Below, in pieces: positions 21,001 through 49,110 of a stretch of 64,000 nt of DNA. The stretch lies in NCBI GenBank assembly GCA_044892505.1, contig CM097883.1, forward strand, positions 226,052,001-226,116,000, given 5' to 3'. Source of the stretch: Schmidtea nova (Eukaryota). How positions within the stretch are numbered: the stretch's first letter is position 1; every line of letters begins with the position of its first letter. Below the pieces are notes generated by a model. The model ran no database searches. It was not told where the DNA came from and saw nothing but the letters and a program-made list of their open reading frames with translations. Both the position numbers and the translations under genes were made by a program.

Positions 21001-22550
21001 CATAACAAAGACATTACAATCCATGTGCAACATTAACAAAGACATTGCAATCCACATGCAACGTAATCAAAGACATTTCATTGCCAAATTTCATAACAAA
21101 GACAATTCATTGCCAAAAAACTAAACAAAGACATTTCATTGCCAAATTTCATAACAAAGAAATTTTAATGCCAAAAACTAAACAAAGACATTTCATTGAC
21201 AAATTTCATAACAAAGACATTTCAATGCTAAAAAACTATACAAAGACATTTCATTGCCAAATTTCATAACAAAGACAATTCATTACCAAAAAACTAAACA
21301 AAGACAATTTATTGCCAAAATAATTAAACAAAGACATTTCATTGCAAAAACACCTAAACAAAGACATATCAATGCCAAAATAACTAAACAGAGACACGAA
21401 CATTTACTTGCAGAACATTTACTATCAGAACATCTTTTGTGATGGTTTTTATCTGCCAAAGCTTATTACTCGAACATTTATTACAATTCAAAGATTATAT
21501 ATGTATTCTTAAACATAGAAATTTTTCATAACAAAGACATATCATTGCCAAAACATCTAAACAAAGACATTTCATTACCAAAAACACCTTAACAAAGACA
21601 TTTCAATGCCAAAAATAACTAAACAAAGACATTGTAATACATATGCAAGTTAACAAAGACATTGTAATGCNNNNNNNNNNNNNNNNNNNNNNNNNNNNNN
21701 NNNNNNNNNNNNNNNNNNNNNNNNNNNNNNNNNNNNNNNNNNNNNNNNNNNNNNNNNNNNNNNNNNNNNNNNNNNNNNNNNNNNNNNNNNNNNNNNNNNN
21801 NNNNNNNNNNNNNNNNNNNNNNNNNNNNNNNNNNNNNNNNNNNNNNNNNNNNNNNNNNNNNNNNNNNNNNNNNNNNNNNNNNNNAATGCCAAAACAATAC
21901 ATATGCAAGTTAACAAAGACATTGCAATACATATGCAAGTTAACAAAGACATTGCAATACATATGCAAGTTAACAAAGACATTGCAATACATATGCATGT
22001 TAACAAAGACATTGTAATGCNNNNNNNNNNNNNNNNNNNNNNNNNNNNNNNNNNNNNNNNNNNNNNNNNNNNNNNNNNNNNNNNNNNNNNNNNNNNNNNN
22101 NNNNNNNNNNNNNNNNNNNNNNNNNNNNNNNNNNNNNNNNNNNNNNNNNNNNNNNAACAAAGACATTGTAATGCCAAAACAATACATATGCAAGTTAACA
22201 AAGACATTGTAATGCNNNNNNNNNNNNNNNNNNNNNNNNNNNNNNNNNNNNNNNNNNNNNNNNNNNNNNNNNNNNNNNNNNNNNNNNNNNNNNNNNNNNN
22301 NNNNNNNNNNNNNNNNNNNNNNNNNNNNNNNNNNNNNNNNNNNNNNNNNNNNNNNNNNNNNNCTTATTTAAACAAAGACATTGTAATGCCAAAACAATAC
22401 ATATGCAAGTTAACAAAGACATTGCAATACATATGCAAGTTAACAAAGACATTGCAATACATATGCAAGTTAACAAAGACATTGCAATACATATGCAAGT
22501 TAACAAAGACATTGCAATGTGGATACAAGTTAACAAAGACATACATGCAA
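21001..22550. repeat. Tandem array of ~30-bp units built on aacaaagacatt
   Basis: Homogeneous unit atatgcaagttaacaaagacattgcaatac from ~21640; more diverged copies 21001-21640; interrupted by N runs. Confidence 0.92.
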
Positions 22551-22947
22551 GTTAATAAAAAATATTCAAAAATATTCACGGGTTCAAAATTTTTTAAAAC
22601 TATATAAATATCATACGAAAGGTATTTGAGATGTGTGTGTGTGTGTATTTTCAAACCTTCAAGATGTCAAAATAAAATAATTAAACTACCACAACGTAAT
22701 ATATATTTATTTTCCTACCCATTTTGACGCTGCAATTCATGTGCAATATTAACAAAGACATTGCAAAACAGATGCAAGTTAACAAAGACATGGATTGTTA
22801 GCAAGCCAGATTAACAAAGACATTGCAGTTGCAAGCCAAGTTAACAAAGAAAAGTTGTTAAAAAAAGACTAATAATTAATCACAAAGTTCATTCTTTTAG
22901 CCAATGATAAAATAAATTAAATGAAAATACATATATTTTGTACGACA

Positions 22948-23540
22948 TTATATGTATATCACATGATATTCATCAATACTAATACCACAAGACTCACACT
23001 TATCAATATTTTTTAAACATTTTGAACAAATAATGACATGTCCACAAGGTAAATATAAAATGCCAACTCTATTGATATTACATATTGAACATGTGAGAAA
23101 TCTTTGTTTGGTTTCTTCCAATTTCTTGGTTACATTTACCTCTAAAATATCCACATTCAGCATGAAAGTTCGAATAATAGTACGATATTTTCCAAGTCGA
23201 AATTCCATACATGACCAGAAAATGGTATTCAAATTGAATTCAGTAGAATCGATATCATTAAGAATCATAATAAAACTGGATAATTTCATCATGGATTTAT
23301 CATATCCGAATGGTTCTGTTAAACCAATAATTAATTTATTATTGAAGGATTTGAATAATTTTGAAAGAATGTCGATATCGCATTTCTCAATCGAAGTTAA
23401 AAGGTCATCAAGTATTAAAAATGATTGGATCCAATTGTCCAAAGTAATGAAATTATCTGTAACCTAGTTTAAAATAATTAATTTAAATATATATTTTTAA
23501 AACTAACTTTATTTGTTTCTTTATTTGTTTCTTTATTCAT
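22948..23540 (-). CDS. Intact two-exon gene, ~182 aa, with C-terminal IAP/MDM-type C3HC4 RING (E3 ligase-like), no BIR
   Basis: ATG 23540; exon 1 MNKETNKETNK; 44-nt GT-AG intron 23507-23464 joins in phase; LTCSICNINRVGILYLPCGHVIICSKCLKNIDKCESCGISI; TATAAAT at 23577. Confidence 0.75.
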
Positions 23541-25061
23541 TTTCGTCAATCAATATTATTTAAAAGTTGTATTTATATTACAAAAATCAACCAATTTAAT
23601 AACAAACCATTTTATTAACCAACCAATGATTGAAAGTTTTGCTAAACTGTTACATTAAAATGATGATAAGGGACATTGAAAATTAGGTAACAATATATTT
23701 ATTATTAGAAATATGTTCAAGTAATGAGCTTTTGCACATAAAAACCATCACAGAATAGGTTCTGCTACTAGGGTTCTGCTCGCAATGTTCTGCTACTAAA
23801 TGTTCTGTCACTATGACAAATACATGAAAAATTATCATACTATTGAGATAGTCACACAAATAATTCTTAAATTATAGTACAAATATATCAAAAATATATG
23901 AAATATACATTACTTGTAATATTATCACAAAGTATCATTACATACATGAAATATCTACATACTTCCTCAATTACACAGAAAATCATCAAAGTTACACACA
24001 AAATATGAAAAGTATATAGAAATTCGTCACATACAAAAACATCGTATATATGAAATATTATCAAAAATACATAGAAATTTATCACACACGTACAAAATAT
24101 CACCATACTATAGTGTATAACTATACATACAAAATATCAGAAATACAAACATACATAAAATTTCATCTTACTATAGTTTGATAACATAGAAATACTTGAA
24201 ATATTCACAAAATACAGAAACTAACAAAGATATATAGAGTCATCACACATGCAAAATATCACATATAAGAAATATCATTACAGATTATCACATGCATGAA
24301 ATATTATTATTATTATTGTGCAAATTACATAGAAAATAGTAAAGATACATGAAATATCATCACAAAATACACACACAGAATTATAGGAAATTTTCACACA
24401 CTAGAAATACATACAATAATAATAATAATGATCATTAAAAGAATATTATCACGCCAGTAGAAAATTATACACAGAATATTATCATATTGAACAAAAGCTT
24501 ATCATATATATGAAATATTATTATACTTTTATGTAAACTACAAAGAAATATACAAACATATACACAAAATATTATCACATTATAGTGTCTAAACATTAGA
24601 AATACTCACAAAATATATGAAATATGATCATAAAATATCAAAGATTCACAAAGAAAATATATAAAAGATTATCATATTTTTGATTGATAACATGAAAATA
24701 CATTGAAATAGATAGGAAAATTATTAAAATACATACAAGTATCAATACATACATGAAATATCTTACACAAAATGTTATAACATGCATGAAATATCTACAT
24801 ACAAAATACCAAAAGTACATAGAAATAAATTCTATACACAAAGGATATCATTACATATATAAAATATCATCATAAAATATCTTTACATACATGAAATATC
24901 ATCATACTTTAATGCAAATACAGACAAAATATTATCATGATATATTCCAAATACACTTAATAATTAAAAGAAATATCATACATACACAAAGGATATCATT
25001 CACATGAAAAGTTGTCATGTTATAGTCAGTCAAATGCATGAATTATTATCATACTAGTGTA

Positions 25062-25092
<31 letters not shown>

Positions 25093-27559
25093 TAATATCA
25101 AAATAAAATGTGTCATACATACAAAGGATATCATTACAAAGTATCATTACATACATTTAATATCATCACACTATAGTACAATTAAATAGATAATCATTAA
25201 AAAATATAAAGAAATTAAATCAAATTCACAACAATATTCATTAAAGAAATATCTACATACTTGTGCAATTACATAATAAATATACATAAATATCAAAATT
25301 ATATGAAATATCATCAGAAATATCAACACATATGAAATATTATCATACATACACAAAATACAAAAAGTACATAGAAATTCGTCACATACAAAATATCAAA
25401 AGTTTATTACACATACAAAATATAATTACATATATCATCATACTATAATTTAACAGTAATAAATGTTTAGCTAATGAGCTTTTGCACATAAAAACCATCA
25501 CAGAATAGGTTCTGCTACTAGGGTTCTGTTCGCAATGTTCTGCTAGCAATGTTCTGCTACTGAATAAATTTGATGAAAATGTAACAATGTATTATGAATG
25601 GAAATAAATCTTTCAAACATTACAGTAAATTCTACTTTAAAATGAGGTTGAATGCATGAAATGTCATCATACTATAGTGCAAATACATGAAATACTCTTT
25701 AGATACATGACTTTAGATGAATCAAATATTATCTTACTATAGTTTGATAACATAGAAAAAATATATAGAAATCATCAAAATTATACCAAATATTAAAAAA
25801 AGATTATATTAAATATCATCACAAAGTACATAGAAAATCATCAAAAATACACAGAAATTCATCAAATTCACAACAATAATCATTAAAGAAATATCTACAT
25901 ACTAGTGTCATTACATAACAAAATATCTGAAAATATATGTTATATCATCACAAATATGAAATATTATCATATACAAAGGATATAATCACATACAAAAGTT
26001 CATTACACATACAAAATATACTATCATATATCAACATACCTTAATGTAACAGTAATAATTGTTCAAGTAATGAGCTGTTGCACATAAAAACCATCACAAA
26101 AGATGTTCTGATACTAGGGTTCTGCTACTAAATGTTCTGCTAGTCATGTTATGCTACAGTATAAAATTAATGAAAGTTATATAAATGGAAATAAATGTTT
26201 CAAACATTACAGTAAATTCTACTTTAAAATGAGGTTGAATGCATGAAATATCGTCATACTATAGTGCAAATACATTAAAATACTCACAAAATGATATTAG
26301 ATACATCAAATATTATCTTACTGTAGTTTGATAACATATTAAAAATAGATCATAAAATTTCATCACAAAATACATAGATATTCATGTACAAATTATCACA
26401 AAAAAAAGAAAAAAAATACAAACATACACAAAATATTATCACAAAATATCACAAATACATTAGAAATACATATCAAATATATATGAAATGTCATCACAAA
26501 GTATCATTAAATATATGAAATATCATAATTCTATAGCGTAATTACAAGAAAATATCCACAAATTCTCACAAATACTATGAAATTCATCAAAAATACATTG
26601 AAATTCATCAAACATACATAGCAATTCATCAAACAAGAAATATTCACATAATAATTGTCATTAAAAGAGTATCAGTAATTGTAATATACTTTCACAATTT
26701 TTCTGTTACATTGATCGAAGCTCATATGCTAATGATTGTTATTTTAGTATATGTATGAATAATGAGCTTTTGCACATAAAAACCATCACAAAAGATGTTC
26801 TGTTACTAAAGGTTCTGTTCGAAATGTTCTGCTAGTGGATAGATTTAATGAAAATTATACGAGTGACAATAAATTGTTAGAGTAAATTCTACATTAAAAT
26901 GAGGAAAACCAATAGAGAAAATATTAATTGGTGAAAATATTAGAACAAATGATGCTGAATGAATTGTAATAAATGTTCGAGTAATAAGCTTTGGCAGATA
27001 AAAACCATCACAGAATAGGTTCTGATACTAAATGTTCTGTTCGCAATGTTCTGCTAGCATGAAATTAATATAATAAAATGATAGTCTGTGACAAAACATG
27101 TTGAAATAGTTATTGGAAATATATATAGTCTGTAACAAAAATGTGAAATAATTATTGGAAATGTATAGTTTGTGACAAAATAATTATTGGAAATACGCAT
27201 GCGAATAAATAAATTAAAATAATATCAAACTGTACATCATAGTTTTAATTTCTTGTAAAAAACAAAGCGGGTTATCAAAATTCATGTTCTAAATATAACT
27301 TTACAATTTAAAATATATCTATTACAATTTTATAAGTAATTCATTTTAAACTATGAACTGTCAACAAAATACCAATAATGATAATGAAGTTAAGGAAACA
27401 ATATCATTAAATGGAAGATCGATATTTGAAAGTCCTAAACTTTCAAGTAAATATTTTACGTAACTAAAAAGTCTTTGTTTGAATTTTTACGCCCACGCAT
27501 TTCTTTGTGTTTGACTCCACACATCTACCTACTTATGTAGGATTTATTTCTCAACAAAA

Positions 27560-31938: not shown

Positions 31939-33199
31939 TATAAGTAAAATCATTTTGATTAGGAGATATTTAGCATTAAAACCTTTATAAAGTATTTTTA
32001 AAAGTTTATAGTGAAGACAAACGTAAATAATAAGTAACAAAGAGACGTTACCCTCCTTTCCCTCCTTGGTTGTTGCGATGCCGACACGATATGGATAACA
32101 TAATCCTACACTGATAACATTTATGAAAAGGTCCGTCTGCAAAAATTAGGGGACAATAATACAAAAGGTAATAATTAAATGTATTTCAAGTAAGGGAGCT
32201 AAACTTTAAAAGCTTTGTTTAACGACGGAAAGTAATTAAATATAATTAAATCGTTTTTTGTTTAAGTTAATCACAAAACAAAATCAAAAAATCAAAAAAA
32301 TACTTTATTCTGATCTCTCATGGAACCGCGACCTCGAATCATGATTTTACAATCTAATTTCTGTTCGAGTTGTTTCGCTGTATATCCTCGGGGGCCGAGA
32401 ATTCTCCCAACGAAATTATACTAACAACAGAACCCATTAATTAATCAAATGATTTAATTAATTTTTTCACATTGGGATTTTCCTTCACTGGCAGAAAGAT
32501 TTTCTCTTGTTTCGACACGATTCTTCCCTCGCGGGCTGATCCATTGTCAATGGTAGCCACGGTTTTTTCAAATTTGAATAAATTTTCTTTTACAAGTGCG
32601 ATCTCTGACAAATGGAAACATAATTCGTTAAATCAATAAATGCATTTCAAAACCTTTGTCTAATAAATTAGCGACATGCTTGAAATTAATGCCGGATAAT
32701 TGAATTGATTTTTTATCTTTAAATAATTCTTGTAGATAATCTGATGTGTAAATATTTTTCTTTTCACTTGATAATTCATTATTCATAATTAGCGTTAAAA
32801 TAAAACTGATTCAAAAATGTTACTTTTGATAATGTTACATATTGACAATATTAAACAAAAATAAAATATAATCGATATGACGTATAAAATATTTAAGGTT
32901 TATATAAATTTTCATTATATAATTAAAGATTAACTGAAGTAAAAATAGCTCATTTTTAAAAAATATCAAAACTGAAAATGAGTATTTGATAAAATTTTAA
33001 TGTGTATTTTGAAATTGTAAAAATTTTGTTCTGATAAATAGGGTTTCTCTTTTGATAGTATAAACTTAGATTTACGATTAATCTTTCATTTTTTAGTGTA
33101 TTTTGGTAATTGTGATTATTTATTTATAATTAACTTATAGAGAAATTTTAATACAAAATACATGTACATACCTTATTTATCATCGTTAGTTCACTTATA

Positions 33200-34115
33200 C
33201 AGTAAGACCCTGTTTAACGCGGTGGATACGCTCCATCAAAGTAGAGCGTAATGCGAAACAGCGCTAAACGAGGCTATCTTAACATGTATATAATGGGGTT
33301 TGGGGAAGTTGGATAGAAAATTCGTTAGGCATTAAATTTAAAAATTATGATTGTTTTTTATAAAAAGAAAACCAATCATTTATTTATTACAAAAATAAAT
33401 AACAATATAAACGAATATATTATAAAAACAATTAAATTTTTAGTCAGTCAGATCATTCAGTCTATTCTGTGTTTCCAACTTTCTGTGTTTTTGTCAAGAA
33501 AGCATCTAATGTAGTTTGCGTTTGCCTTTTGCGTTTTGTTAGAAGTTGTTGTTAAGAGGATAAAGCATATTTAACACCCCGTCTTGCTTTTGAACTCTTG
33601 TCAAAATTTGGATCATTTTTAACAAATTGGTCCATAATTTCAGTTATAGTGGTCAAACTTCTTTTTACAAACGCCATCGAAAGTTCTTTTTGATCTTCTT
33701 CGAAATCACTATTTTTGTTTTCTTCTTGCGCAGTTAATGCTTTGAGCTCATCATTAGAAAAACTAGCTGCTATTTCTTGAACTATTTCTTCGACGTCTTC
33801 CACGTTTACCTCATCTAAACCGGTTTGTTTCGCTAATTTCACTATTTCTTCACTATTTCATTCATATCGACAAAGTGTCCAATGTCTTCGCTCTTACTTA
33901 AATCCGGCCAAATGTTCTTCCATATTCCTTTCAAAGATCTTTCTGTCATTTCATTCCAAGAAAGGTTTATATTTGCTACAGCATTCATGATATTGTAGTT
34001 TTTCCAAAATTCTCTTATTGATTGTTTTTCTTCTCCGTCTGTTTTTTCAAACATCTGCTTAAATGTTCGCCTCAAATAATAAGCTTTAAAATTGGATATA
34101 ACGCCTTGGTCCATT
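33200..34115 (-). mobile_element. 3' part of a Tigger/pogo transposon
   Basis: TA then TIR cagtaagaccctgtttaacgcgg at 33200; MDQGVISNFKAYYLRRTF..REFWKNYNI..IWKNIWP and EDVEEI..SNDEL..DPNFDKS are Tigger DDE C-terminal motifs. Confidence 0.88.
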
Positions 34116-34891
34116 TGTAGGATCTTTTGGATCACAACTCCTTGATAACCATTTACATCTCTTTGTAGGTCCTCTTTTTCTTTGATCAACTTTTGTCGTT
34201 CCGCTTCCTCTTTCTGTCTAATACCTCGTATTTTTCCATTTATCATCTGTATTTGCCACTGTGCTTTCTTTAATTCTTTTGCTTGTTCCCGAATAAATCG
34301 TTGGCGTTTCCGACTCCATTCTCGGTTTGTCTGCTCTTGTCGCCTTTTCCGCTCCAATTCCTCTTTTAATTCGTCTATCTCTTGATACAGTTTCCAGTCC
34401 TCGCTGTACGCTGTCTTTTTGATTATCTCTTTGGCTTCTTTATACACTCGCTTCGACTCTATTTTCCAATGTCTTGCTTGAGCTTTGATAGCTAATATTT
34501 TTACTTCCATCTTTTCCTCTTGTTTCTCTTTCTCTTCTCTCCTCGCTTTCATCATATTTTTATAATGTTCTGCTTGTTTTCTCATCATCTGATAGATTTC
34601 TTCTATCTTTTCTCGATTTCGTAAATTCGTTTTCTTTAATTGCTTCGTTTGTGCGATAAGCTGCACTATTTTCTCGTTTTCTTCTCGGAGGTGTTGTTTT
34701 CTTATTTCGACCTGATGTCGGCAGTCTTGTAGTTCATCCCATTGGAATGTCATTCTATCATTTAATTCTTTAGTTCTTTGTTCTACTTCTACTTCGCATC
34801 TCCTTTCGATATCTCTTTCCACTGATTCTTGTTCGTTCAACACTTCTCTTCTCGTTTCGTCTTCTGTTACACGTTCTTTTACGTTCTCCAT
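33842..34891 (-). CDS. Chimeric ORF: ~255-aa coiled-coil retroelement cargo fused in frame to the Tigger transposase C-terminus
   Basis: Open 349-aa frame; E/K/R/Q-rich helical region switches at ~34115 to MDQGVISNF. Confidence 0.7.
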   Translation of the reverse strand: MENVKERVTEDETRREVLNEQESVERDIERRCEVEVEQRTKELNDRMTFQWDELQDCRHQVEIRKQHLREENEKIVQLIAQTKQLKKTNLRNREKIEEIYQMMRKQAEHYKNMMKARREEKEKQEEKMEVKILAIKAQARHWKIESKRVYKEAKEIIKKTAYSEDWKLYQEIDELKEELERKRRQEQTNREWSRKRQRFIREQAKELKKAQWQIQMINGKIRGIRQKEEAERQKLIKEKEDLQRDVNGYQGVVIQKILQMDQGVISNFKAYYLRRTFKQMFEKTDGEEKQSIREFWKNYNIMNAVANINLSWNEMTERSLKGIWKNIWPDLSKSEDIGHFVDMNEIVKK

Positions 34892-34977
34892 TCTGCAATT
34901 TACAAATTTACACTTGTTATACTATATGTTACAGTTAAGTTGCTTTTTACACTTTATTTACAGGGTCGTTTGCTCTA

Positions 34978-36390
34978 CTATTCCAACCATCCTTTCGTTG
35001 ACTTCGTGTTCAACATTGTCGTGCTTGTCTTCTTTTCGACCTCTAACTGCACATATAGGTTGTCGTCGTACAACATTTCCCATATTTTATGGTGTACTAC
35101 GAATTTTGGTTCTCCTGTTGCTAATGAACATTCTGTGTTTGGTCTTTTGTACGCTTCGTGCTTTACATCAACTTTGAATATTCTCACTATCGTTTCTCTC
35201 GAATTTTTGATTCTCATTATCGCCTTTGTTTCTAGTGGGCATTCCAGTATATCGTCATAACCGCCTTTACATAACGCAAAAAATAATGACACATGCGTTT
35301 CCTTTCCTGGTCCATCTCCATTTGGATAAATTCTTATTCTGATTTTGTATCCATTTTTCCACAGATAGAATGTTGGACTTGTCACTGACACTTGTTTTCC
35401 TGCTCTTGCTGCTGTGGACTTATCGTTGAAGTTCGTGATTTTCCATACATACGGTGCAACAGGTAGGTTTTCTATATCCTCTGTATCTCGAATTCATATT
35501 TGATGTCGTACGTTTATTTCTTTTACTAAATTCTCTATGACCGTGATTTTGCCCATCATTTTCTCTCTGGTGAGTTCGAATTGTTCTCTCGTTTCCAGTA
35601 ACAGTTCTGTCATTACCCTCTGGGATTCGATTTCCTTTTCTAACTTCTGTATTGTTTGTTCCATCTCACTCAGATTCCCTGTCAACATCTCTGCGTGTTG
35701 TACGGTTTCCGTTTCTAGATGTTCTTTCGTCTCCTTGCTTGTTTTCCTTGCTTCGCATCCCTGTTTGCTCCATACACATTTTCTTGGTTTCGATTCGCAT
35801 TGTTCCCAATGTTTTCGTAACATTACTTCCTCTCCGATTCTGCAATTATTTGGACAAATTCCTCTGAATTCCACACATACTTTCTCTTCTGATACGTTGA
35901 TATGTTCTGTTTCAATTATTCCTTTCGTTTCCTTTTGTTCGCAATGTTGACATTCGATTATCTCTGCTTTGCACTCGTTCTTGTGATTTTCCCACTGTTT
36001 GATGGTTGTCGTCTGTCGACACTTTTCGCATATTGCTTTCTTGTTCTCACATTTCTCCAGATGTTGTGTTAGTTCGATTATTTGTCCTTTCCATTCGCAT
36101 GGTTGATTTATACATTCTGTTTTTATCTTCCAGATCTTCTTTTGGATTGCTTTGTCTGGTTTCGTTTCGTTGATTAGTAATTTATCGTCACACTCCGGAC
36201 ACTTTCTTGTCCCATCTTCGCGGATTATTTGCAATATACACTTGGTGCACATTCTGCATCCACATTCTGTTTGTCTCGGTTTTAACAGTAAGTTTTTACA
36301 CTTTACACATGTCACGGTTACTATCCATTGTCGATTCTCTCCTCCCAAAATTTCGATTGTTTGGTAATCTGCTTCACTTTCTGCTCTCAT
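34978..36390 (-). pseudogene. TRAF-family protein (RING, TRAF Zn fingers, coiled coil, MATH) with a single in-frame TGA at 35494
   Basis: CVKCKNLL..QTECGCRMCTKC..CPEC; CINQPCEWKG..HLEKC; YVWKITNF..SPTFY..GYKIRIRIYPNGDGPGKETHVSLFF..KGGYDDIL; the two ORFs share a frame. Confidence 0.93.
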
Positions 36391-36480
36391 TCTACAACAA
36401 TAGATACATCAACTCTCATATTTTTGATTTTTCTGGTTTTTTTATTTACACATATCTACACAATTTTCCGCTTTATTTCA

Positions 36481-36831
36481 CTATACATTCTCAGTCGAAT
36501 CTGGCTCTGGATACACGTCTATCTCATTTACAATCCAGTTTGTCCAACTATCTGGTATCTCTTCCTCTTCATGTCTCGTTAACCGATTAATTTCCTCTGC
36601 TTGCCAGTCATTTACTTCGTTTAACATTCGGTTCTCATTCTGTAATTCATTTATCTGCTGTTGTTGAATCTCAATTTTGTTCATCGCCTCGAAATTACAG
36701 TTGTAACTCTCGGTTAGTAGTTGCGTCTTTGCCGTCAATTGACTCTGTAATTCGTTTACTGTTCTGGTTAGCAGGTCACATTGCACTTTCCATCTAATCA
36801 TCATTGATATTTCTGCAGTTTCTTGGTTCAT
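36481..36831 (-). CDS. 116-aa coiled-coil ORF of unknown function
   Basis: Open frame with heptad-like Q/E/N-rich segment; followed by AATAAA at 36477-36472. Confidence 0.5.
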   Translation of the reverse strand: MNQETAEISMMIRWKVQCDLLTRTVNELQSQLTAKTQLLTESYNCNFEAMNKIEIQQQQINELQNENRMLNEVNDWQAEEINRLTRHEEEEIPDSWTNWIVNEIDVYPEPDSTENV

Positions 36832-36953
36832 CGTCTTCTAGATTATATACATCAGTCTCTTTTTCTTGTTTTTATGTTTTATAATATTTATACCCATACG
36901 TATACGGTTATGCATTGGTTTTTACAATATTATTTACACTCATATTCCTCCCT

Positions 36954-38929
36954 CTATACCACTATCACTGGTTTTCCTTCATAACACTTCTCATCTTCGA
37001 TTTGTTCCAACATTTCTTTACATTTCGATCTTTTCTTCAGTTCTTTTCGTATTTCCTCTGGTAGTTCTATGTTGTAATTCATGACCTTTATATCTGGCCA
37101 TCGTTCTGCTATGGTCTTATTTCTCATGCCATACATCCAGCATACTACCATAATCGTTATCAGTAATATACACGCTATAAATACTCCAATGCTGATTAAT
37201 CCCATTATCGTTTTTCCAATGCTCTTTTTCTGAGTCTCGCTTTGGTTTATCATTACGCCATATTGACCTTTCCATTCCGCTTCCCATTGTTCGTATAGTT
37301 GTTGTCTCCGTCTGATTTCTTCGACTACTTTCTCTGGTTCCCATCTTTCTTGGCGGTTTGGTATTGTTTCTTCAGTCTCGGTTTGTTCTCTCATCTGACT
37401 CAATTCTTTGAATTCTAACTTTCTGATTCTTCTTTTTATTGTTATATTCCTTGGCGTATAATAGGTTTCACACCTCTCCTGTTGGTTTCCTTGTGTATCT
37501 ACTGCTTCTATTGCACATACTTCGTATTCTGCGTTTGTTTTTAGCCTCTGCATTTTTACTTCAATTATTTCCCCTTTGTTTCCTGCTGTCTTCTGGCAGT
37601 TTTGTGGAGACTTTCCTACATTATTTGGCATTAATTTCCAACAGATTTCTAGGACCTTCTTATGGATCTTCCATATTAGCAAGGTTGTTGACTCCGGTTT
37701 AACTTCGTTTTCCGTCGTCCTCCCCTCTGTTGTTATCCATTGAGTTTGTTAACCGTTGATTATCGTTGTTCTTTTTGACTCTTTCCTCTTCTGTCGGCTT
37801 CTTCTCATTTCAATTACTCTTGTTCCGTTGATTTTCTCTGGCGTCTTGTATAATTTGCACTCCAGACTTCTTTGTATTATTTCTCTTCTTCTTCTGATCA
37901 TGCAAATTTTGTAGGTTTGTCCGACTTCGAATCCATCTAGCTGAAATGGGATTCCTTGTTCTCTTGTTTTACATTGTGGTATTATGTTGCTGGTTGATAT
38001 TCCGAGATATTTTCTCCAACACATTCCAATCGTCCTTCGATTGACGTTTTTTATCTCCACTGTTACCACTTCGTTTGCCATTGTTTCATTGTCTTGCTTC
38101 TTTCTTTTCGGGAACTCGATTATCTCCTTTGGTTTAAACACTTTATACTCGCTCGTTCCTTGTCTATTTCCGTTTGCTGCTTTCTCATGAGACATAGTTC
38201 ACATACTTTATTCGTCTCTATTTCGGTTATTTCGATTTCTTCATTCATCTCCGACTCTCTACTTTCCTTTGTTTCGCTGATTCCAATTACTTCATTGTTT
38301 CGTCCCCAACATCTTCCATTCGTTGTTCGTTGATCCTGGATATTTAGTAACGTCATCACGCTGATGTCTATTTCTTCCTCAATTCTCTTAATTAGGATTA
38401 ATATTAATGCTACGCATATCAATTCTGTTTGGAATGTTAATTTTCCCGCTGGATTTTTGGTTATTCTTTCTTTCTCTGTTCGGTTTCCGGTTACTTCCTC
38501 TGCTTCAGTTTGATTCGTCTGTTTCCTTGATTCCACTTCTGTTCTTTTCGTTGTTTCTTCAATTCTTTTTCCAATCCATTTTTGTATTCTCAGCGCTTCT
38601 GTTGCTTTGAACAATTGACATGAAGTTACTTGAGGTGCTTTTGGTTCTCCTCTCTGCTTTATTGCGCATATTATGTATGACTTTTCTTTTTCCAATACTT
38701 TGATTTGGATGATATCTCGTTTCAAATCCGTCAATATACACTTTAGCGTTTCGTTCTTTCTCATATTCTCTTTCCAGCATATTCTTTCATATACTTCATC
38801 TCCTCTGATTATTTCCAGCGTGACGTATTGTTTCTTGGCTTCTCCTTGTCCGTTGATTGTTATCAATATCGCAAGACACAACATTTCTGGTCTCAAAAGT
38901 AGACTTCCTGTTCGTTTTTCATAGTTCAT
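36954..38929 (-). pseudogene. Membrane protein region: signal-like segments, 4 FN3-like Cys repeats, TM helix, cytoplasmic tail
   Basis: Repeats share CW(K/R)..C..L/F-E..Y-x-I/V-C-x-I..C-x-x-Y/F; TM IMGLISIGVFIACILLITIMVVCWMY; one frameshift and one stop. Confidence 0.6.
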
Positions 38930-39439
38930 ACATTCATCTTTTATTCCACTGTTTTCTCGTTCTTCGGCTTCTTCTTTCTTGTCGTTTCTCGTTGGTTTTG
39001 GTTCTTCCTGTCTTTCTTTTCTATCATCTTCTGTTCCTCTTTTATCGTTGTCTTCGTTGTTATCTTTGTTGTCTTCATCTTTGTCCCCACCTTTGTCATC
39101 GTAATCTCTGTAACCACCCCTGGTCCTTTCAAAATGTCGTCCTCGACATTAATTTCTTTAATCATCCTTTCGTACGCTTGAACTGCGAGTGTGCTAAACT
39201 CAAATTCTTGTATCTCCATATCTTTCGATGGTTCTACGCCTTCTCGTCTACTTTGGCTGATCGTTTCCTTGGCATCTGCCCACTCATTCACATACTTTTT
39301 GAATAAGTCTCTCCATCTTCCCATTCGTTCATGTTCATGGATTATTCGTAAATCTCAAATCTCTTCTCTTCAAGAACTCTTCTACTATCTCTGGCTTCTT
39401 GTGTCTTAATAACGCACCTCTGATACACCAATTCTGATT

Positions 39440-41189
39440 TTATTCCATATGGTCGTTAATCCTGAAGACCGGTTCCTTTGTGATCGAATTTATCCATGTT
39501 AGCAATGCTTTTGTTTTCTCGAGGTCGTGTATCTTTACCACTAGACTGAATTTTCCCACGTTATTTGCCAGATATTCGATCTCATCTTGTTTCTTGATGG
39601 ACTTTATGAACTTGATCATCTCGAAGTTATTCCACTGTATCGCAATATCCATGATAGAATTATTCTTTCCATTTTCCCCTTCGATTTTGGCTCCTGCTTC
39701 ATATAATTCGTTTAGCACTTTCCACTTAGTCTTTTTCCTTGCTGCGATTACCATAATTGTATCTCGATTGTCATCAACCGTATTCATCTCTGCTTCGCAT
39801 TTGATCATTACCCTTGCTATTTCTATAGCCTAATTTTCTTTCTTTCGACGTAATGCCCAGTGTATCGGTAGTCTCCCATCCTTTGATAATAGGAATGCCA
39901 CTGGCATTTGATTTTTGATCGTTTCTATGTCGCTCTCGTTATAGTCTCCTTGTGCTTATCTGTGCACTTTCTCTGTAATTGCTCCTAGTATCTCCAACGA
40001 GTTTTTAACTTCTTTAACTTCTGATATTTTTTTCCTGCGCTTTTGCCACGATTGCGCCTAATCCTTCTTGATAATCTGCCTTTGCATTGAACAACACTGC
40101 TTTGCTCTTTATTCGTGTCTGCATCTGTTTCATTCGTTGATCCTGGTACACTGCTTGTCTGAAGAATTGTCCGTATTTCAATGCTTCTACCAGATCCTTA
40201 TATCGCTTGCGTATTTCTTTGTGCTTCTATTGGATGTCATAGAAATGTTCGAAACTCATATCCGGATTCCATTGTTTGTCACACCATCTCCTGATTAATC
40301 CGAATAATTCTTTCTTTCGGTCTTCTAATTTGTACTACCTTGGGTTTTCTATGACCCGTAGCGTATCTCTTGATATCAACGCCACGAGAGTTTTCGGATC
40401 GTATGTTACTTCTAGTAGATGTTTCAGTAACGCATTTTATTTATTTGTAAACACTTCGTTACAATCTATGACCCATGAGTCTCCTTCTGGTCGTTTCCAC
40501 ATTAGCAATATTCTCCAGGTTTTACTGTTCTTTACTCCGATTGATTGTCTCATGATTGGGCCTCTAGTTAACTCATCGAACTCCCACGTGGCATTTTCCG
40601 TGATATATTTTAACATTCGGTGATTCGCTCTCTCGATTGCATGAGAAAAGAACGTTCTTCCTTCTTTATCTCTTGTTGTCCAATTTGATCTGGTGTTCCC
40701 GAATAGCTTGATTATCTCATCGTTTCTCCCATGAATTGTTATCATCATGAGTGGGGTAATTCCTTCCTAATTTACTTTGTCGATTTTTCCTCCACCTTCG
40801 AGGGTTATTTCCATAATTTCTTTCACCTTTTCGTTCCCACCGTGCTTGATTGCATTGTGCAGCGCTGTGTTACCGTCTTTATCTTGTAGACTCAATGTTT
40901 GAGGAATCTCTTCTAGTACCGTTCTTGTTATCGGATGCGCTGTTCTGTCTTTTGCGTAATTCATTACATTTTTCCGCACTTCTGTCAGTATATTGAAATC
41001 AAGCCACCATTTCCATTCCGGTATTAATTCTCTGGTCTTCTTTGCCAGTTCTTTGATATCTACCGTTTCCTTTCGGTTGTTCTCTAGACTTGTTTGTGGC
41101 TTTTGTTGTACTCGCAACATATTAATTCTCGCCGTTTGTGATCTCGTGATTACTCGTTTTTCTGGTAATAGAGTCGCTGTCTTCGGTAT
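39440..41189 (-). pseudogene. Two ankyrin-repeat clusters continuing from integrase
   Basis: QDKDGNTALHNAIKHG, N*EGITPLMMI, RDKEGRTFFSHAI; KDGRLPIHWAL, VDDNRDTIMVIAA, NGKNNSIMDIAI. Confidence 0.85.
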
Positions 41190-44100
41190 TTTCTTGCATC
41201 GACATGCGTTTACGTATATTGGTCTCACCAATGGATTGTTTACTAGTTTCACCGTACATTATTTTCATTTACCGATGTTATTTCGTATGGCCCTTTGCCT
41301 GGTCGTTGCAGTTTCTTGATTGTACCGGGTATTATCTCTGGTGTCTCTATTATCACCCAATCTCCAATTTTTAACTCATGTGCCTTCACATTCTTTTTCT
41401 GGTCATGCAAATCCTTGTAACTTTCTTGATAGAATTTGATGTTGAGTTCTGCCGTTTTCCATATTTCTTGCATTCTTTCTTTGAACTTAGTAACATAATC
41501 ATCAACCTCCATGTACTGTGATAATGGTGGTTGATATTCCAAGTCGATCGGTAAGTTACAATCTCTCCCGTACATCAATTAGAATGGACTTAGCTTCGTT
41601 GCCGCATGTATTGACATTCTGTATGCCATTAAACACAAGTTTATTTATTCGTCCCAGTCAGTCTGATGTTTACTGACGTAATTCGATAACATGAGTATCA
41701 ATGTTCCGTTGAATCTTTCTGTTTGACCGTTCGTTTGCGGATGGTATGGGGATGTTCGTAATTTCGCTATTCGGAAGTAATTCGTAACTTCGTCTAATAT
41801 TTCACTCATGAAATTTGTTCCTTGATCCGTTAGGATTTTCTTTGGTGTTCCGTATTTGCAGCATATCTCTTCCACCAATATTCTCGCGACTGTTTTTGCC
41901 TTTTGATCTGGTATTGCGAACGCTTCTGGGAATTTCGTTAGATAGTCCGTAACTATTAATATATACTGATTTCCTTTTAGGCTTTCTGGTAATGGTCCAA
42001 CTACATCCATTGCTATCGTCGACATTGGTTCTGCAGGAATTGGCATAGGTTTTAATGGTGTTTTCCACTTCGTCCCGACGTTCTTTCTTGTTGCACAGAT
42101 TAGGCAATTCTTTATCCACTCTTTTACGCCATCTCCCATGGTTGGCCAAAAGTATTTTTGTCTCAGTCTCCCGATTGTCTTTTTTGCTGACATATGTCCA
42201 CCTAGTTTTCCGTCGTGGTACTGAGTCATGATCTCTTTTCTTCTATTTGCAGGTAAGCACATCAGTCTCCTTTCTCCATCTTTTATTAGTAACCATCCTT
42301 TTTCCATCACGTATCTATGTTGATACTTTTGCATATGTTCGCGAAATGCTTGATTCTTGCTGAATATTTTCATCTCCTTTTCCTTCATATACTTGATGAT
42401 AAATCCCAATTATTCATCTTCATGCTGGTCTTTCCTTAACTCACTGAAATCCAAATCCTCAGCTATTAACACGCATATCTTGGTAGCATCCAGGTTTATC
42501 AACTCTGGGAATGTAAATCTTGACATGCAATCCGCGCTTGCATTTGCTTTTCCTGCTTTGAACTTTATGAATGGCGAGTATTCTTGTAACTGCATCGCCC
42601 AACGCATCAATCTACTTAATGATTCTTTATGCTGTCCTAACCATTCCAATGGTTGATGATCTGTCGTAATATATATTTCATGACCCCACAGCAGGTATTT
42701 GAAATGCTTGATTGCCAATATTATTGCATAAGCTTCTCTTTCTGTGACCGAGTAATTCTTTTCGTGCTTCCTAAATGTTCGACTGTAGTATTCAATTACT
42801 CTTTCCTTGCCTTCTTCATCAAATTGGCCTAATACTGCTCCTGCTGCGTATCCTCTTGCATCTGTTGCCAACAAAAATGGCTTCTTGAAGTCCGGATGGA
42901 TCAATATTGGTGCTGTAATCAGTTTGTCTCGTAATGTTTCGAATGCTGCTTGTTGCTCTTCTCCCCATACAAACGACACGTCCTGTCTTACTAATTCTTG
43001 CATTGGCTTCGATATTCATGCATAGTTCTTGATGAACTTTCTATAATATCCACACAATCCAAAAAACTCTTGTATTTGCGTCACTGTTTCTGGTGGTGGA
43101 CATTCTTTGACTTTTTCGATATTCCTTGGATCTGGTTCTTTTCCTCTTGCTGATACAATGTGACCTAAGAAGGTAATTTTCTCTTTTGCCCAATCGCACT
43201 TTGACGGCTTCAATTTCAGCTTCCATTGTCTCAATTTCACGAACACATTTCTGATGTCCTGTAGATGATCTTCAAACGTTGCGGAATAGATCAATAGATC
43301 TTCGATATACACGATGCATTGTTTTATGCCATGGGTTAGAAAATTCATACATCTCTGGAATGATGCTGGCGCATTTGTTAGTCCAAACGGCATTTTCTTG
43401 AATTGGTTCAGATCTCGTCCGATTGTAAATGCTGTTTTCTCTTTATATTCGTCTTTCATTTTGATCTGCCAATATCCGCTTTTTAAATCTAGTGACGTGA
43501 AATAGGCTGCTCCTTGTAACGTCAACAGCATCTCAACAGAATCTCTTTTTGTAACTGCGTTTAATCGTCTGTAATCAATACAGAATCTCTGAGTTCCATC
43601 CTTCTTTTTCACCATCACCACTGGAAATTGCCAGGGTGAACAACTGGGTTCGATGACCTCTGCATCTAGCATCTTTTGTACCTCTTCCTCTGCCACTGCT
43701 TTTTGAGCTTCTGCCAGTTTATATGGTCGTAATGCGATCGACGTTTCATCCGTTAACGGTATCGTGTGTAATGTTACATCACATGTTCCCAAGTCTAAAT
43801 CTGATCCTGCGAATATATCTTTATACTCCATCAACAACTTCTGTAGTTTTTCCTTTTGTTGTTCGTCTAACAACACACTGTCTATTTTCCATGGTAATTC
43901 GCCACTACTTTTCTCGTTCTTATCTGGTATTTCGATCTCGGACATGGGTGTCAATTTACCCAATCTCTCATTCTCGTATATTATGTTGTCCTCCTCGTCA
44001 AAATTCACCAGATTGATCGGTATCTCTCCTTCTTGATTTATCGTGACCAATTCTCTGGCCATTGGTAATTCCTTCTTTGCTTCGAAACTTTTACTTGGTT

Positions 44101-44638
44101 CGAATATCATTTCCCCTTTTATTGTTGAATCGATCTTCACATAACACATCATTTCGTGTCTTGCTGGTACAACTATTTGTTCCGCACTTGCTACTTTGAC
44201 CTCTATTCTGCAGATTTTTCCAGTTCTATCTTTTAACTTCATTGCTCCCAGGTCGATTACTATTTCCTTGAAAAAATCTGGCATCAGGTCAGTTCCAATG
44301 ATACATGGTACACTCAGCGATGGTATTACAGCGATGAACGTATCAATTTCCGCATTTCGATGTCTTATTTTTACAAGCCATCGTCCGGCTACTTCCACTG
44401 TTTCTTGACTGCATGCGATTACATGAACATTAGTCTTCTCAATCTCTCCTTTATTTTTCTCTGGTATATAGTTGATATCGATTGCCGAAATATTCGCGCC
44501 TGTATCGATCATAGCTTTGATTTCTCTTCCGTTTATTTCTACGGTTGTTGTTAGGATTGGTCCTGTACTTGTAGACATAACCGCTATCGTGTGCGTGTCT
44601 TCCAACGGGTCTACACTTCTGCATCTTTTACCTTGCAC
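41190..44638 (-). pseudogene. pol: Ty3/Gypsy pol: protease, RT, RNase H, integrase (inactivated)
   Basis: AMIDTGANIS; RFCIDYRRLN, LDLKSGYWQI, MPFGLTNAP, YIED (YxDD mutated); LATDA, NYSVTERE, TDHQPL, NASADCMSR; HHCC, MDVVG, TDQGTNF, QTERFN, GPYEI; four in-frame stops. Confidence 0.97.
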
Positions 44639-46946
44639 TCCTCCGGGATTATCGGGTATATACTCGTCATCGGCATCATCTGCATCACATTCGGTTTCGT
44701 TTTATACATAGGTTCGTTGTACATTGACTGGGGTGGGGCACTGTATCTCCAATTCTCAACTGCACTCTTTTCGGTATACTGTGGAATCTGGTTTATATTC
44801 GCTTGTCCTCCTTGATCGTCATCGTCATCGTCATCATTGCTTGAATTATCTTGCGTTCGATATCCTCTCACTCTTTCCCATAATCCATTCTTTTCTTTCT
44901 TTAGTCGTCGTCTTGCTTGTTCGTCTTGCATTATCTTTTTGAATTTCTTTCCGACATTTTCATTTGTTCCTTTCATTTTTGCGAGTATCTTCAACAATCT
45001 CTTTATCCGATGTATGTTCTTTGAATGTCCATGTAACACCATTGTTTTCGCGAGGAATGGTAAAGATCCTACTACTATTTTCCAATTCACTTTCTTTTCT
45101 GTCTTGTAGATAACGAAGCACGATAACATTTGCATTATTATCACTCTGACGATTTGTATTATTAATATAACACCTAGTATTCCAGCCATCATTTGTCCGA
45201 ATATCAGGAATCTTCCCCAAATTGCCTTCATCATATTCTCGGTGGCCTTCTTGAAATGTGCCGGTGACAATAGTAGTTCGTAATTCGGTCCTTCTCGGTA
45301 ATTCGTTCCTCCAGTTATCGTTACAATATTTGACAGTAAAGCTTCTCTTCTAGCCGGAAATAGTATATTCTGTCTCGCTGCTTCCAAGTCTTTTAGACTG
45401 TATATTCCGTTGTTTGATACATCGATATCGCTAAATTGTCTATCTTTTGACAGATGCATTAGCTCGAATTCTCTTGGTGCAGGTACTTCTGTTCTTGCTG
45501 GAAACATAACTCATTTGTCATCTGGTTTCTGATAAAGCGGTCCATACACATTACTGCAATTGAATGGATTCGGTTCAAACCCTGGTGGGTTGATGATTCT
45601 CGTCACCGGTTGAACGTATCGTACTTTTCACTTGTAGTCGATTTCTAACTCATTTGTACATGTTCCGGGTTTTAGTTGCGTTGTTGCTGCTAACGGCACG
45701 TGTGTCTTTTCGCAAATATACACATACATTGCCTCTCCGACCACTCTTCCGAAATTTCCTTCTCTCAGTGGTCCTAATGCATTGCACTATCTGGATTCGT
45801 AATTGCCATGGCTAATTTTGTCTTCAATATTTCTCGATTCAGTATGCAGTCGTTGTTTATCAGATCGTAATACACCTTTTGTAATGAAGCTTGTCCTCGA
45901 TGGAATAAGAAATCCATTTTATTATTCACGTACAAGTGTAATTTGATATCCATTGTGTCGATCTTGGGTTTCGCATTCGGCACTTCTTGTTTTGACACGT
46001 ATATTCCTGGGTAGTTCGTTTCGTATACCGTTGTACTACTCTTAAGGGTTGCTTTCCCTTTTATGAATCTCATTCCCACGTCCTGATTCGTGGTTATCAA
46101 CACTGTTGGTGTGGCTCTCATCTCTATCCGTTTCTCTTCTCGTTCTGGTTTCAGTTGTCTCTGATTTTCCAGTGCTTCCTTGAGATGCTTTGCTCTAATT
46201 TTATCATCATCTTCTTCTTGGAACGTTTTTCCTTGAATTTTGTCGAACTTTGCTCCTTGTAGCAGTTGCAATTGGCAATCGTTTATTTTCGATTTATACA
46301 CCAAGGTTGACATTCCCGTTTGACACATACTTCTGTTGATTTTGCACATGGATAACGTTTTCATTTCTCCTGTTGTTGGGTCGAAGAATGCTTCATAACT
46401 TTTCAATTCGACTATATACGTATCCATCACGACTAAGTTACTTGCAAGTGTTCCGAATATCGGGTAGGTTTCTCCTTGACAATAGCCTTCTCCTCCGGTA
46501 ATCCGTCCAGCTACATAATACGTCTGTTGCAGCATCTTTCCTGGCTTTCCTTTTATCTTGATTTTGTCTCTTGTTGTTACTTCTCCATGTCTAAAAAATG
46601 CTTCGCAGTCTTCTCCTTGTAACAGGATGGATTATCTTTCCGTACCTAGTATGACAATTGCTGAATAATGTCCTCTCCCACAATAAAATGCGAATCTCGT
46701 CTTCTGTACTTTGCATTCGTTAACCATTGTTTTTACCAATTCTGCTTCCTGGTACACATGATACCATTGTTCCTTTTTAATCTTTTTCAATTCTACTGGA
46801 GTTGCATCTTTGCATTGCTCAGTACCTCTCAACGAGTACTTTTCTCCTAATTTCATTTGATCACAGTCAAATACCTCAAAGGTTGTTACACCTTCCGTGC
46901 TTAACAACCATACCAACATCATCATGATTATCGAGTTTAAATTCAA
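44611..46946 (-). pseudogene. env: Envelope: class III (chuvirus/herpes gB-like) fusion glycoprotein
   Basis: Signal-like IIMMMLVWLLSTEG; FEVFDC..YSL..C; CKVQKTRFAFYCG; GYCQGETY; NNKMDF..DC; GEAMYV..C; GIYSLKDL..ILFP; TM MAGILGVILIIQIV. Confidence 0.8.
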
Positions 46947-47054
46947 CGTCGATCTCCCATTTCCTTGCATTGTTTGTCTATACTCTATTTCTCTCAATAC
47001 TCCTTCGAGCTTCTTTCGCATAACATTTGAACCATCTTTTGTCTGATTTTCTTT

Positions 47055-47501
47055 TAAAAACTTCTCCCATCCTCCTTTCCTGAGGATATATGGTTCGATT
47101 TTCTTCTCGATAATCATTGTCGTAGTTTTAATATATCTTCCAATCGGACTTGATTTCGGACTTCCTCGGCTTAGCGTTAACAAATTGTATATCGTATATG
47201 AGATTGCCACTAGATATTTGCTGTCTGTTTCTGGTCCATTAAGTAGCCTTCTTATCAACATTGTGGTTCCTTACGAATCTAGATGATTTGATTTTGTTTT
47301 CGCTTTTATCAATTCTGGCATAATCAGTGCTATTGCATTATGTAGCATCTTTTCCTTTGTACTAGGTTCTTTTATCCGCCACAGATTCTTTAATTCTGGA
47401 TCGATTATCGCTAATACATTCATTATCGTTTTGGTGAGCCATTCCTCTCCTTGACAGACTTGATTCTCTTCTTTACCTCTGATTTCTGCAATTTTGTCCA
47501 A
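47055..47501 (-). pseudogene. Bcl-2-like domain in frame upstream of the env signal peptide
   Basis: BH2-like IEPYILRKGGWEKF and BH1-like RLLNGPETDSKYLVAISY at nearly Bcl-xL spacing; one TAA at 47271. Confidence 0.7.
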
Positions 47502-47519
47502 TTTCCTTAAACATATTTC

Positions 47520-48869
47520 TCATTGTTCTTGTCTCCTTTCTTCTCTTGTCTTTGGGATTGTTGTTGCTGGATCTAGTTTTGGTCTTCCTCTCGGTCGTTT
47601 CTCCATTCCAGTTCCGGTTTCCACGAATCTCACTGATCTTCCAGTTTCTTCTGTGACGTCTCTTCCTTCGTTTGCTCGTTGTTCTAACCATCTTTCCATT
47701 TCTTGAGTGAACTGTGGTTTTTCTTGTTCATCTTCTAGATCATTTACCGTTTCTATAACTACCTCTTGTTCCACTCCTTGATCGTTGATTTCTGTTGGTG
47801 ACGTTATTGGCATCTCTATTATTCTGTCGAAGATGTTCATTGTTGGTTTCTGAGTCAACTTCATTAATTCTTCTATCGCTTCATCACTGTCTGTTAATAT
47901 CTCATCAACATCATACGCTTCTGGCGGTGTTCTCTCTCTTATTTTTACTGGTGTTGTTCCTGTTTGTCCCGAACTTGTTCCTGGGATCATTGTTGATTTC
48001 ATCGGACTATATGTACTTATGCTTTCTTTTGGCTTCTTTTCCTCTTTTAACTCCAATGGTTGACCCACTATTTGTGCCAGTGTTAGCGTGTTCATTAAGT
48101 CCAATTGCACTGGTGTCAGCCAGATTTCCAAATTGTTTTCTAACGATCGTCCTTGATGTTGTAAATGGAATGGTAGTTCATACATTAGCTTTTCTTTAAC
48201 ACTCTTCACTTTCTCCGTTAGCATCACCCAAAACTCTTCTTTTCTCTGATTCAGATATATTATTCTCAAATGTATTTTTTGTAGCGTTTCGTCTGTGAAT
48301 TCTCTGTTTCTCCATTTTTTGATTACATGGTCTAGTTGCTCTGGACACCACTCATTGACCCTTTTGTATTCTACTATCGCTTTGGCTACTTTTCTCAGAT
48401 TCGTTACATCTTCTCCGTTTACAATTATAAATTCTGCTAAGCCTTTGACTGTTCATCTTTTTCCTTGAGCATTTCCTCTCAATAATTCGATTATTTTGTC
48501 CGTTTTCTGCTGCTCCAATTCTGCCCATATTGCTGCTGTTTCTGGTCCATCTAAATCTGTTGGTAATAGTTTTCTTGTTACCATACATATCCTTTTCGTA
48601 TCTGATTCGTATCTGTCTTCCACTTCCGGATCTTCTTCATATACGCCTCCTTTCGCTTTCCAACATTTCTCTTTATCAGCCCATTGTTTCTCCACTGGCG
48701 TTAATCGTCGTCTGTTAAGATCCAATTCTCCAAATACCGTTTCCCATTCTGGCTTTATCTGCCAGTTCCGATTGATTTCCACTATCTGTCTCAATTTTCG
48801 CATAACGTCCTCATGTCGTTTCTTTCTCCTTTCCTCATCTTTTGGTGTTACTCTCGGCACATCATCCAT
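47520..48869 (-). pseudogene. Unassigned polyprotein segment
   Basis: ORFs 48453-48869 and 47520-48269 share a frame, split by one TGA; low-complexity acidic tail with basic motif KRPRGRPK. Confidence 0.6.
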
Positions 48870-49110
48870 TCTGATAACATGTATCGTCTGATAATTATCC
48901 CATATGCCGATTTTATACGCTCGTCTCTCATCACGTTCATTCAGTACGTGTTCCTTGTATTTTATTGTATTTTATCATCTTCGAATTCGTTTTCTCGTTC
49001 TCGTTATAATATCGTCTCATTGATAACATCCACTAATTCTCCCACTGTGCAATCTGATATTATTTCCATTTGCCTTGTCTCTTCGTTTGGCAGCTTCACT
49101 GTAATATTTT
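48870..49110 (-). pseudogene. Ubiquitin-like domain
   Basis: ITVKLPNEETRQMEIISDCTVGELVDVINE..DDKIQ/KYKEHVLNERDERRAYKIGIWDNYQTIHVI follows the ubiquitin strand/helix pattern; 2 stops and 1 frameshift. Confidence 0.5.

Follow-up and report, generated by a model that had tools for sequence, protein, structure and literature searches.

A decayed Burro-like Gypsy element on the minus strand

The window, which is the whole 64,000-nucleotide stretch of Schmidtea nova DNA analysed here, holds on its minus strand an A-rich run of same-strand frames between about 57.9 and 34.1 kb. A Pfam scan of 27 pieces of this run gave, in reading order, a RING of the IAP type, CCHC knuckles and a Monjiviricetes-type fusion glycoprotein in three pieces, then protease, RT, RNase H, integrase and ankyrins, followed by a membrane protein without a family, ORF X, a TRAF gene with domains from RING through MATH, and ORF Z joined to what is left of a DDE transposase. 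The central part of this order is a decayed gag (CCHC)-env-PR-RT-RNase H-IN-ankyrin-membrane-protein region at 36954-51593 (minus strand; PF00098, PF24664, PF00077, PF00078, PF17917, PF00665, PF12796), for which we infer a single polyprotein frame in intact copies. The PR-RT-RH-IN order is that of Ty3/Gypsy, and the best RT matches listed are 44-54% identical, one of them being named 17.6-type Pol. The env (PF24664) is found as three consecutive pieces at 47270-44611, between the zf-CCHC and the protease, which places a fusion glycoprotein between gag and pol as in Burro-like elements. MATH, RING, ankyrin and coiled coils, all cargo of the Burro type, were detected; BIR and BCL2 had no Pfam match in the 27 pieces scanned. 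Just 5′ of env (46632-47270, minus strand), a stretch with GGWEKF and no Pfam match resembles the BH2 motif of BCL2; it lies where Burro carries a BCL2-like domain. The membrane-protein region (39148-36954, minus strand) contains a cysteine-bearing unit repeated about four times and, at its C terminus, a hydrophobic segment, with no family above the cutoff.

The junctions described below thus sit within a Burro-like giant Gypsy element that is decayed and 3′-truncated: its 3′ end and 3′ LTR are missing, lost at about 34115, where ORF Z is joined to the DDE transposase remnant (33552-34114, minus strand; PF03184, E 4e-9). Burro/GYPSM1 of S. mediterranea and Dugesia tigrina, in its published description (PMC6431247), has the same CCHC Gag, mononegavirus-like fusion glycoprotein between gag and pol, PR-RT-RH-IN order and ankyrin, TRAF/MATH and IAP-type cargo, to which the description adds Smc-like and BCL2-like cargo. 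Its coding span is given there as 4873 and 5140 aa, compared with 4880 codons from gag to the membrane-protein region here, and its polyprotein as one frame of ~4900-5100 aa, whereas the present copy has many breaks. Furthermore, Burro is described with paired long LTRs and a total length of about 30 kb, whereas here we found one candidate 3.4-kb LTR and a lost 3′ end, and TRAF is here a separate whole gene behind the polyprotein, whereas MATH lies within ORF1 in S. mediterranea Burro and in an upstream accessory ORF in D. tigrina (PMC6431247). The likeness is one of architecture, drawn from the published description.

DNA contigs from four runs of one study (X1-X4) were aligned to positions 33000-42000, with 2004-3312 contigs per run. 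Most are less than 95% alike, indicating that the region belongs to a repeat family. None of the contig joints listed (15 of 87) has splice-type ends, and none of the loose ends listed (24 of 1821) falls at an acceptor. Searches elsewhere confirmed 0 of 3 stretches for an env piece against viral contigs, 3 of 64 for the integrase in metagenomes (of which the one inspected is an ordinary chromodomain Gypsy) and 1 of 11 candidate MATH homologs, and ORF Z had no match at 0.9 or above in the Atlas.

At the 5′ end, we found a candidate 3.4-kb LTR containing ORFs A and B (54465-57858, minus strand), whose boundaries we infer from a purine tract that precedes it (57874-57859) and a PBS-like stretch starting with TGG that follows it (from 54464). 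Self-BLAST gave no LTR pair, with no second copy within the 64-kb window; a polypurine tract before and a PBS-like stretch after the LTR suggest an LTR common to tandem copies, or a recombinant. Within it lies a candidate promoter with a leader exon of ~110 nt (57196-57353, minus strand), recognised by ATTGG at 57353 and TATATAAG at 57327 in the layout ATTGG-21 nt-TATATAAG, from which transcription would start near 57305. The leader ends at a candidate major splice donor, AAG/GTACGT (57187-57198, minus strand; intron start 57195), which matches the consensus at 6 of 7 positions. Of 1073 GT sites, the six that match best, this donor among them, are all located in the 5′ 6 kb, a region with 347 of the 1073 GTs (P about 1e-3); four others of the six are found between the PBS-like stretch and gag, at 53238, 52016, 51930 and 51866 (minus strand). 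From the TATA box of spacer 1 (see below) to the TRAF acceptor, no donor exceeds 4 of 7. The 5′ untranslated region also contains an 18-nt tandem array (52639-52802) and imperfect repeats of ~85 nt (51888-52255), the latter carrying the donor-like sites 52016 and 51930. An AATAAA at 57203 (minus strand) directly abuts the candidate donor at 57195, and in this layout U1 binding could mask the poly(A) signal, as in HIV-1.

Candidate splice acceptors and poly(A)-like signals of the accessory genes

Six accessory frames lie outside the polyprotein region, all on the minus strand. ORF A (55662-56226), without a Pfam match, is broken by stops at 55816 and 55662; it has no upstream cistron, and its acceptor AG ends at 56230, 3 nt upstream of the ATG at 56226. 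ORF B (186 aa, 54864-55424) starts directly after an AG ending at 55425, an acceptor with the best pyrimidine tract among 730 YAGs. The IAP-like RING gene (53502-53960; PF13920, E 4e-8), with stops that break the frame, has TTCATTCAG 3 nt upstream of its ATG. Behind the polyprotein follow three frames: ORF X (116 aa, 36481-36831), coiled-coil-like and with no Pfam family above the cutoff; the intronless TRAF gene (34978-36390), with RING, zinc fingers, coiled coil and MATH (PF21363, E 4e-4; PF22486, E 1e-23) and an in-frame stop at 35496-35494, whose acceptor is the most T-rich among the 525 YAGs below 51367; and ORF Z (34115-34891), a coiled coil cut off at ~34115.

The earlier note had described two operon-like junctions in which a stop, an AATAAA and a splice acceptor directly before the next ATG follow one another within about 90 nt, and had placed the starts of ORFs A and B at acceptors as well. 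All of these we recovered. In the ORF X-TRAF junction, the TAG at 36483-36481 is followed by AATAAA at 36477, TTGTTGTAG ending at 36392 and the ATG at 36390, with a spacer of 90 nt; in the TRAF-ORF Z junction, the TAG ending at 34978 is followed by AATAAA at 34958, TTGCAG ending at 34893 and the ATG at 34891, with a spacer of 86 nt. To these we add a second AATAAA in the 90-nt spacer, at 36446, a third spacer at 36953-36832, and the IAP acceptor.

We then scored acceptors with a simple, self-devised rule, a YAG 0-6 nt upstream of the ATG with at least 5 T in the preceding 12 bases, taking the first ATG of each of the six accessory frames. This pattern is found at 6 of 6 accessory starts, compared with 9 of 616 other ATGs; such scores are self-devised counts on one decayed copy. 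Among ATGs with a purine at -3 it is present in 6 of 387, and in the T-richer 5′ region in 0 of 163. The acceptors at the accessory starts are a real pattern, far beyond chance. As the purine -3 control shows, the pattern is not a by-product of Kozak context, and Kozak context as the sole cause of an AG before the ATG was rejected. The branch-point motif YTRAY is not enriched in the spacers (3 seen, 1.7 expected).

The main poly(A) signal of planarians is reported as AAUAAA, 10-30 nt upstream of the cut (PMC5068929). In the present element, an AATAAA occurs within 50 nt past 5 of 6 ORF ends (4 of 6 when the first stop of ORF A is used), whereas in the 5′ region 14% of 50-nt windows contain one, an excess with P about 3e-4 for a window length of our own choosing. 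Taken one by one, such hexamers are weak evidence: the element contains 56 of them, 15 in the 10.1 kb of gag-env-pol, and dinucleotide shuffles of the three spacers reach the observed 3 AATAAA in 32% of 2000 trials. Taken together, the post-stop set holds. Furthermore, when the 31 non-coding hexamers are ranked by T content downstream, 7 of the 8 post-stop ones take places 2-8; counting one hexamer per ORF, p is 0.005-0.016 over four windows, weaker in the nearest window (0.016) than in the other three (0.005-0.007). This T richness covers the hexamers of ORF A (55620 and 55616), of ORF B, whose stop falls inside the AATAAA at 54868, and of the IAP gene (53497), none of which has an acceptor tract in its scored window. 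The exception is 36477, which ranks 20-24 of 31 in three of four windows and, among the contig gaps listed (12 of 67), is interrupted at 36474 and 36476 by 1-nt gaps of a single contig; the share of depth carried by that contig is 459/522 in X1, 5241/5883 in X4, 29/119 in X3 and 0/70 in X2. The AATAAA at 36446 is the better poly(A) candidate of the two. Within 50 nt downstream of the polyprotein stop at 36954, neither AATAAA nor a planarian variant is present in this copy.

TGTA octamers in the three 3′ spacers

The three 3′ spacers (all minus strand) share a further sequence feature. Spacer 1 (122 nt, 36832-36953), between the polyprotein stop at 36954 and the start of ORF X at 36831, contains TGTAAATAAT at 36938, CCAAT at 36918, TATAAATA at 36892, TGTATATA at 36851 and an acceptor TAG ending at 36838. 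Spacer 2 (90 nt, 36391-36480) contains the weak AATAAA at 36477, TGTAGATA at 36460, TGTAAATAAA at 36450 (with the AATAAA at 36446) and the acceptor ending at 36392; spacer 3 (86 nt, 34892-34977) contains TGTAAATAAA at 34962 (with the AATAAA at 34958), five TGTA and the acceptor ending at 34893.

TGTA is the top 4-mer in these spacers, with 12 seen and 1.3 expected. With 5-10 flanking bases included there are 13, all on the sense strand, against 0 TACA, which fits an RNA motif better than a promoter element. Moreover, all 5 sense-strand TGTANATA octamers of the element fall within the 298 nt of the three spacers: 5 of the 12 spacer TGTA extend to TGTANATA, compared with 0 of 90 elsewhere (2.3 expected), and a count of 5 was reached in 0 of 5000 shuffles, for a motif that was found post hoc. 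The UGUANAUA octamers are confined to the three spacers, and TGTAAATAA occurs once per spacer, 15-30 nt past the stop; an 8-mer present in every spacer turns up in 191 of 5000 shuffles, so that TGTAAATAA by itself counts as modest evidence only. Among the variant places listed (40 of 1610), position 36403 is one at which all aligned contigs in all four runs differ from the window, and those copies gain an extra match beside the TRAF acceptor.

The PUM motif is given as UGUA(A/C/U)AUA (PMC8595405), and 4 of the 5 octamers fit it exactly, the remaining one being UGUAGAUA; all are in untranslated spacers. We propose that the octamers are probably PUF (Pumilio) sites dampening the messages that retain them. 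UGUA is also open to a CFIm reading, which we rank lower since S. mediterranea poly(A) sites reportedly lack an upstream UGUA (PMC5068929), favouring the PUF reading. Alternatively, the three octamers that overlap the position of a poly(A) hexamer could be part of the poly(A) signal. The octamers do not lie in hairpin loops, with a mean unpaired value of 0.26-0.77 in weak folds.

A proposed common-leader unit and its alternatives

With an acceptor-like site before 6 of 6 extra genes and a poly(A)-like site after 5 of 6 ends, a long RNA is likely cut into single-gene messages. Judging from these motifs, each cargo gene very likely yields a single-gene mRNA via a 3′ splice acceptor, most cargo genes probably have their own poly(A) site, and the spacers are non-coding junctions that likely act as RNA-processing switches. 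The earlier note had read the junctions as operon-like, resolved by spliced-leader (SL) trans-splicing, or by retrovirus-like alternative splicing from an upstream donor. The spacing of ~90 nt indeed fits flatworm operons, yet it is not specific to them: a single promoter combined with a choice of acceptors and of poly(A) sites would leave the same arrangement. Between these routes the evidence leans towards cis-splicing, given that the good donors are confined to the 5′ part, that the acceptor of ORF A has no cistron upstream, and that the frame of an ATG-ending leader disagrees with some starts.

The reading that we prefer, to which we give about an even chance of being right, is a unit in the style of the adenovirus major late region, in which a single promoter in the LTR and one donor behind a common leader serve alternative acceptors and poly(A) sites. 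Transcription would probably begin once, in the LTR; the short leader would be cis-spliced to the acceptor upstream of the wanted gene, and the RNA would be cleaved at a leaky poly(A) site past that gene. The donor for the 3′ genes could be 57195 or one of those at 53238-51866, implying introns of 15-22 kb, and genomic RNA would be made when every internal site is read through. Within one spacer, polyadenylation and splicing might also compete, because the AATAAA stands just 54 and 65 nt away from the AG and the U-rich downstream element is the acceptor tract itself. As motifs, the parts of such a unit are in place, namely a promoter-proximal donor, an acceptor per ORF and several internal poly(A) sites. 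A leader ending in AAG would give a purine at -3 at 6 of 6 starts, where the genomic bases alone fix it for A, IAP and X. An ATG-ending leader would be in frame at A, B, IAP and X, and would place an out-of-frame AUG 4 nt upstream of the TRAF and Z starts. At a shared acceptor, a cis donor is reported to outcompete the SL (PMC4558846, citing Hastings 2005). Several points stand against this common-leader reading: cis-splicing to TRAF or Z requires a 15-22-kb intron and has to bypass as many as five other acceptors as well as several poly(A)-like sites; in the present copy, the polyprotein ends without an AATAAA; and both spacer 1 and the IAP gene come with their own TATA box.

A tentative alternative, which we consider unlikely but the most serious of the rivals, is that X, TRAF and Z form one RNA, possibly from a promoter in spacer 1, that is cut after each gene and re-capped by the SL at the next AG. 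The array resembles flatworm and nematode SL operons, described with same-strand genes less than 300 nt apart and a poly(A) signal followed by an AG acceptor (PMC12582326, PMC8629364): here the spacings are 86, 90 and 122 nt, and a poly(A)-like motif and an acceptor stand within the same 86-90-nt spacer in spacers 2 and 3, with no such poly(A) motif in spacer 1. These lengths are in the size range of flatworm operons, given as an intercistronic median of 99 bp in S. mansoni (PMC12582326) and a peak at about 100 bp in M. lignano (PMC8629364), although cleavage would fall ~20-50 nt before the AG, below the S. mansoni median and still within range. The cassette has no good donor inside it, the nearest lying 15-22 kb upstream, and an RNA cut internally has no donor left, such that cis and SL routes could both act. 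Spacer 1 has CCAAT-21 nt-TATAAA, with the spacing of the LTR promoter, but the element has 9 CCAAT-TATA pairs over 23.5 kb, 4 of them with 21 nt. S. mediterranea is reported to perform SL trans-splicing and to have an SL that is enriched in stem cells, and leader relics of parasitic flatworms beside LTR and LINE elements have been read as SL-receiving retrotransposon RNAs (PMC12582326). Acceptor anatomy does not exclude the SL either, because flatworm SL acceptors are commonly shared with cis-splicing, on average 66% (PMC12582326). Parasitic-flatworm SLs end in ATG (PMC12582326), a property documented for parasites that may not hold for the present host; the offsets from acceptor to ATG are in frame with such an SL AUG in 4 of 6 cases (0, 3, 3, 6), with a chance of about 0.1 by hand calculation. 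However, an ATG-ending SL is out of frame, with a worse -3 base, at exactly the TRAF and Z junctions, and ORF A has the same acceptor pattern, together with a donor (966 nt upstream, at 57195), and without an upstream gene; unlike known SL operons, the array is embedded in an LTR unit that has donors upstream of it, and even its first gene has the acceptor pattern. A bolder form, in which a true animal operon within a provirus-like element would use a promoter at the polyprotein end, a host SL (perhaps that of stem cells) and Pumilio sites for tuning to stem cells, appears doubtful to us.

Two other explanations have a weaker claim. Separate units, in which every cargo gene would bring a short promoter and a poly(A) site of its own, seem improbable. 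Here the TGTA(AA) repeats, with a forkhead-like core, would be directional promoter elements, and the T-rich AG would be initiator-like or a downstream poly(A) element. TATA boxes are indeed found at 36892 for ORF X and at 54090 (minus strand) for IAP, the latter a TATATAAG identical to the LTR TATA box and 130 nt upstream of the start, such that IAP may have its own promoter as well as an acceptor; most genes have a poly(A)-like signal downstream, and a TGTA-rich stretch precedes a plus-strand coding-like remnant (57886-58330) with no upstream gene seen. However, spacers 2 and 3 have no TATAWAW match, 3′ UTR, terminator and promoter would have to fit into just 86-90 nt there, the sense-only TGTA suit an RNA motif better, and the YAG 0-6 nt upstream of all six ATGs is left unexplained. 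It is more improbable still, in our judgement, that the acceptors are used in cis for an HIV-like nested set in which every RNA reaches the 3′ LTR and the internal AATAAA arise incidentally from A-rich sequence and from the TGTAAATA octamer. The abundance of AATAAA in the element is consistent with this, as are the unconserved look of 36477 in the gapped contigs, the TGTAAATAA that spacer 1 retains without a hexamer, and the acceptor-side octamer (36851), which stays in upstream messages only if no cleavage occurs there. The hexamers of A, B and IAP, which lack the octamer and are yet U-rich downstream, argue against it.

The preferred common-leader unit would work like the adenovirus major late unit, described as ~28 kb with a common spliced leader, alternative acceptors and five poly(A) sites (PMC4346872). 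Adenovirus, however, is an unrelated DNA virus that needs no full-length genomic RNA, whereas the element must read through all internal sites. Among LTR elements, the short gag RNA of EVD and plant Ty1/Copia also couples splicing to internal (premature) termination to produce a subgenomic mRNA; that case, as described (PMC5580714), is a single event for gag only, in a different superfamily and with no cargo array. The sections of PMC6431247 that describe Burro contain nothing on splicing or poly(A). Our literature search found no paper with such an expression layout for Burro, which a 2026 Dev Cell paper on Burro1 B-IAP could cover, and no title on it under SL with LTR retrotransposons or Pumilio with retrotransposons. 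The element adds a member to a known kind, and its expression layout was absent from the literature searched. Burro elements carry apoptosis and signalling genes, and we found no description of how this cargo is expressed beside a 25-30-kb genomic RNA; the IAP-type B-IAP of Burro1 is reported, second-hand, to protect planarian stem cells (PMC13465017). If the preferred reading is true, an adenovirus-style unit would be an unusual solution for an LTR element; if the RNA is instead SL-resolved, the element would be tied to SL-bearing hosts and its cargo could be switched by SL knockdown.

The surroundings of the element contain other features. Just outside the purine tract, the decayed plus-strand remnant at 57886-58330, antisense to the element, has a composition (A 0.45, C 0.13, G 0.25, T 0.17) like that of the element's coding strand, and four TGTA are found in the 135 nt upstream of it. 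On the other side, host exons at 32630-32280 (minus strand) resemble a KH/STAR RNA-binding gene; the 63-aa piece had no Pfam match, and these exons have a T-rich CAG acceptor resembling those of the element. Satellite-like arrays with 29-31-nt units extend over 20455-27539 within 91-nt inverted repeats, and a further 96-nt inverted pair is located at 14725-15811.
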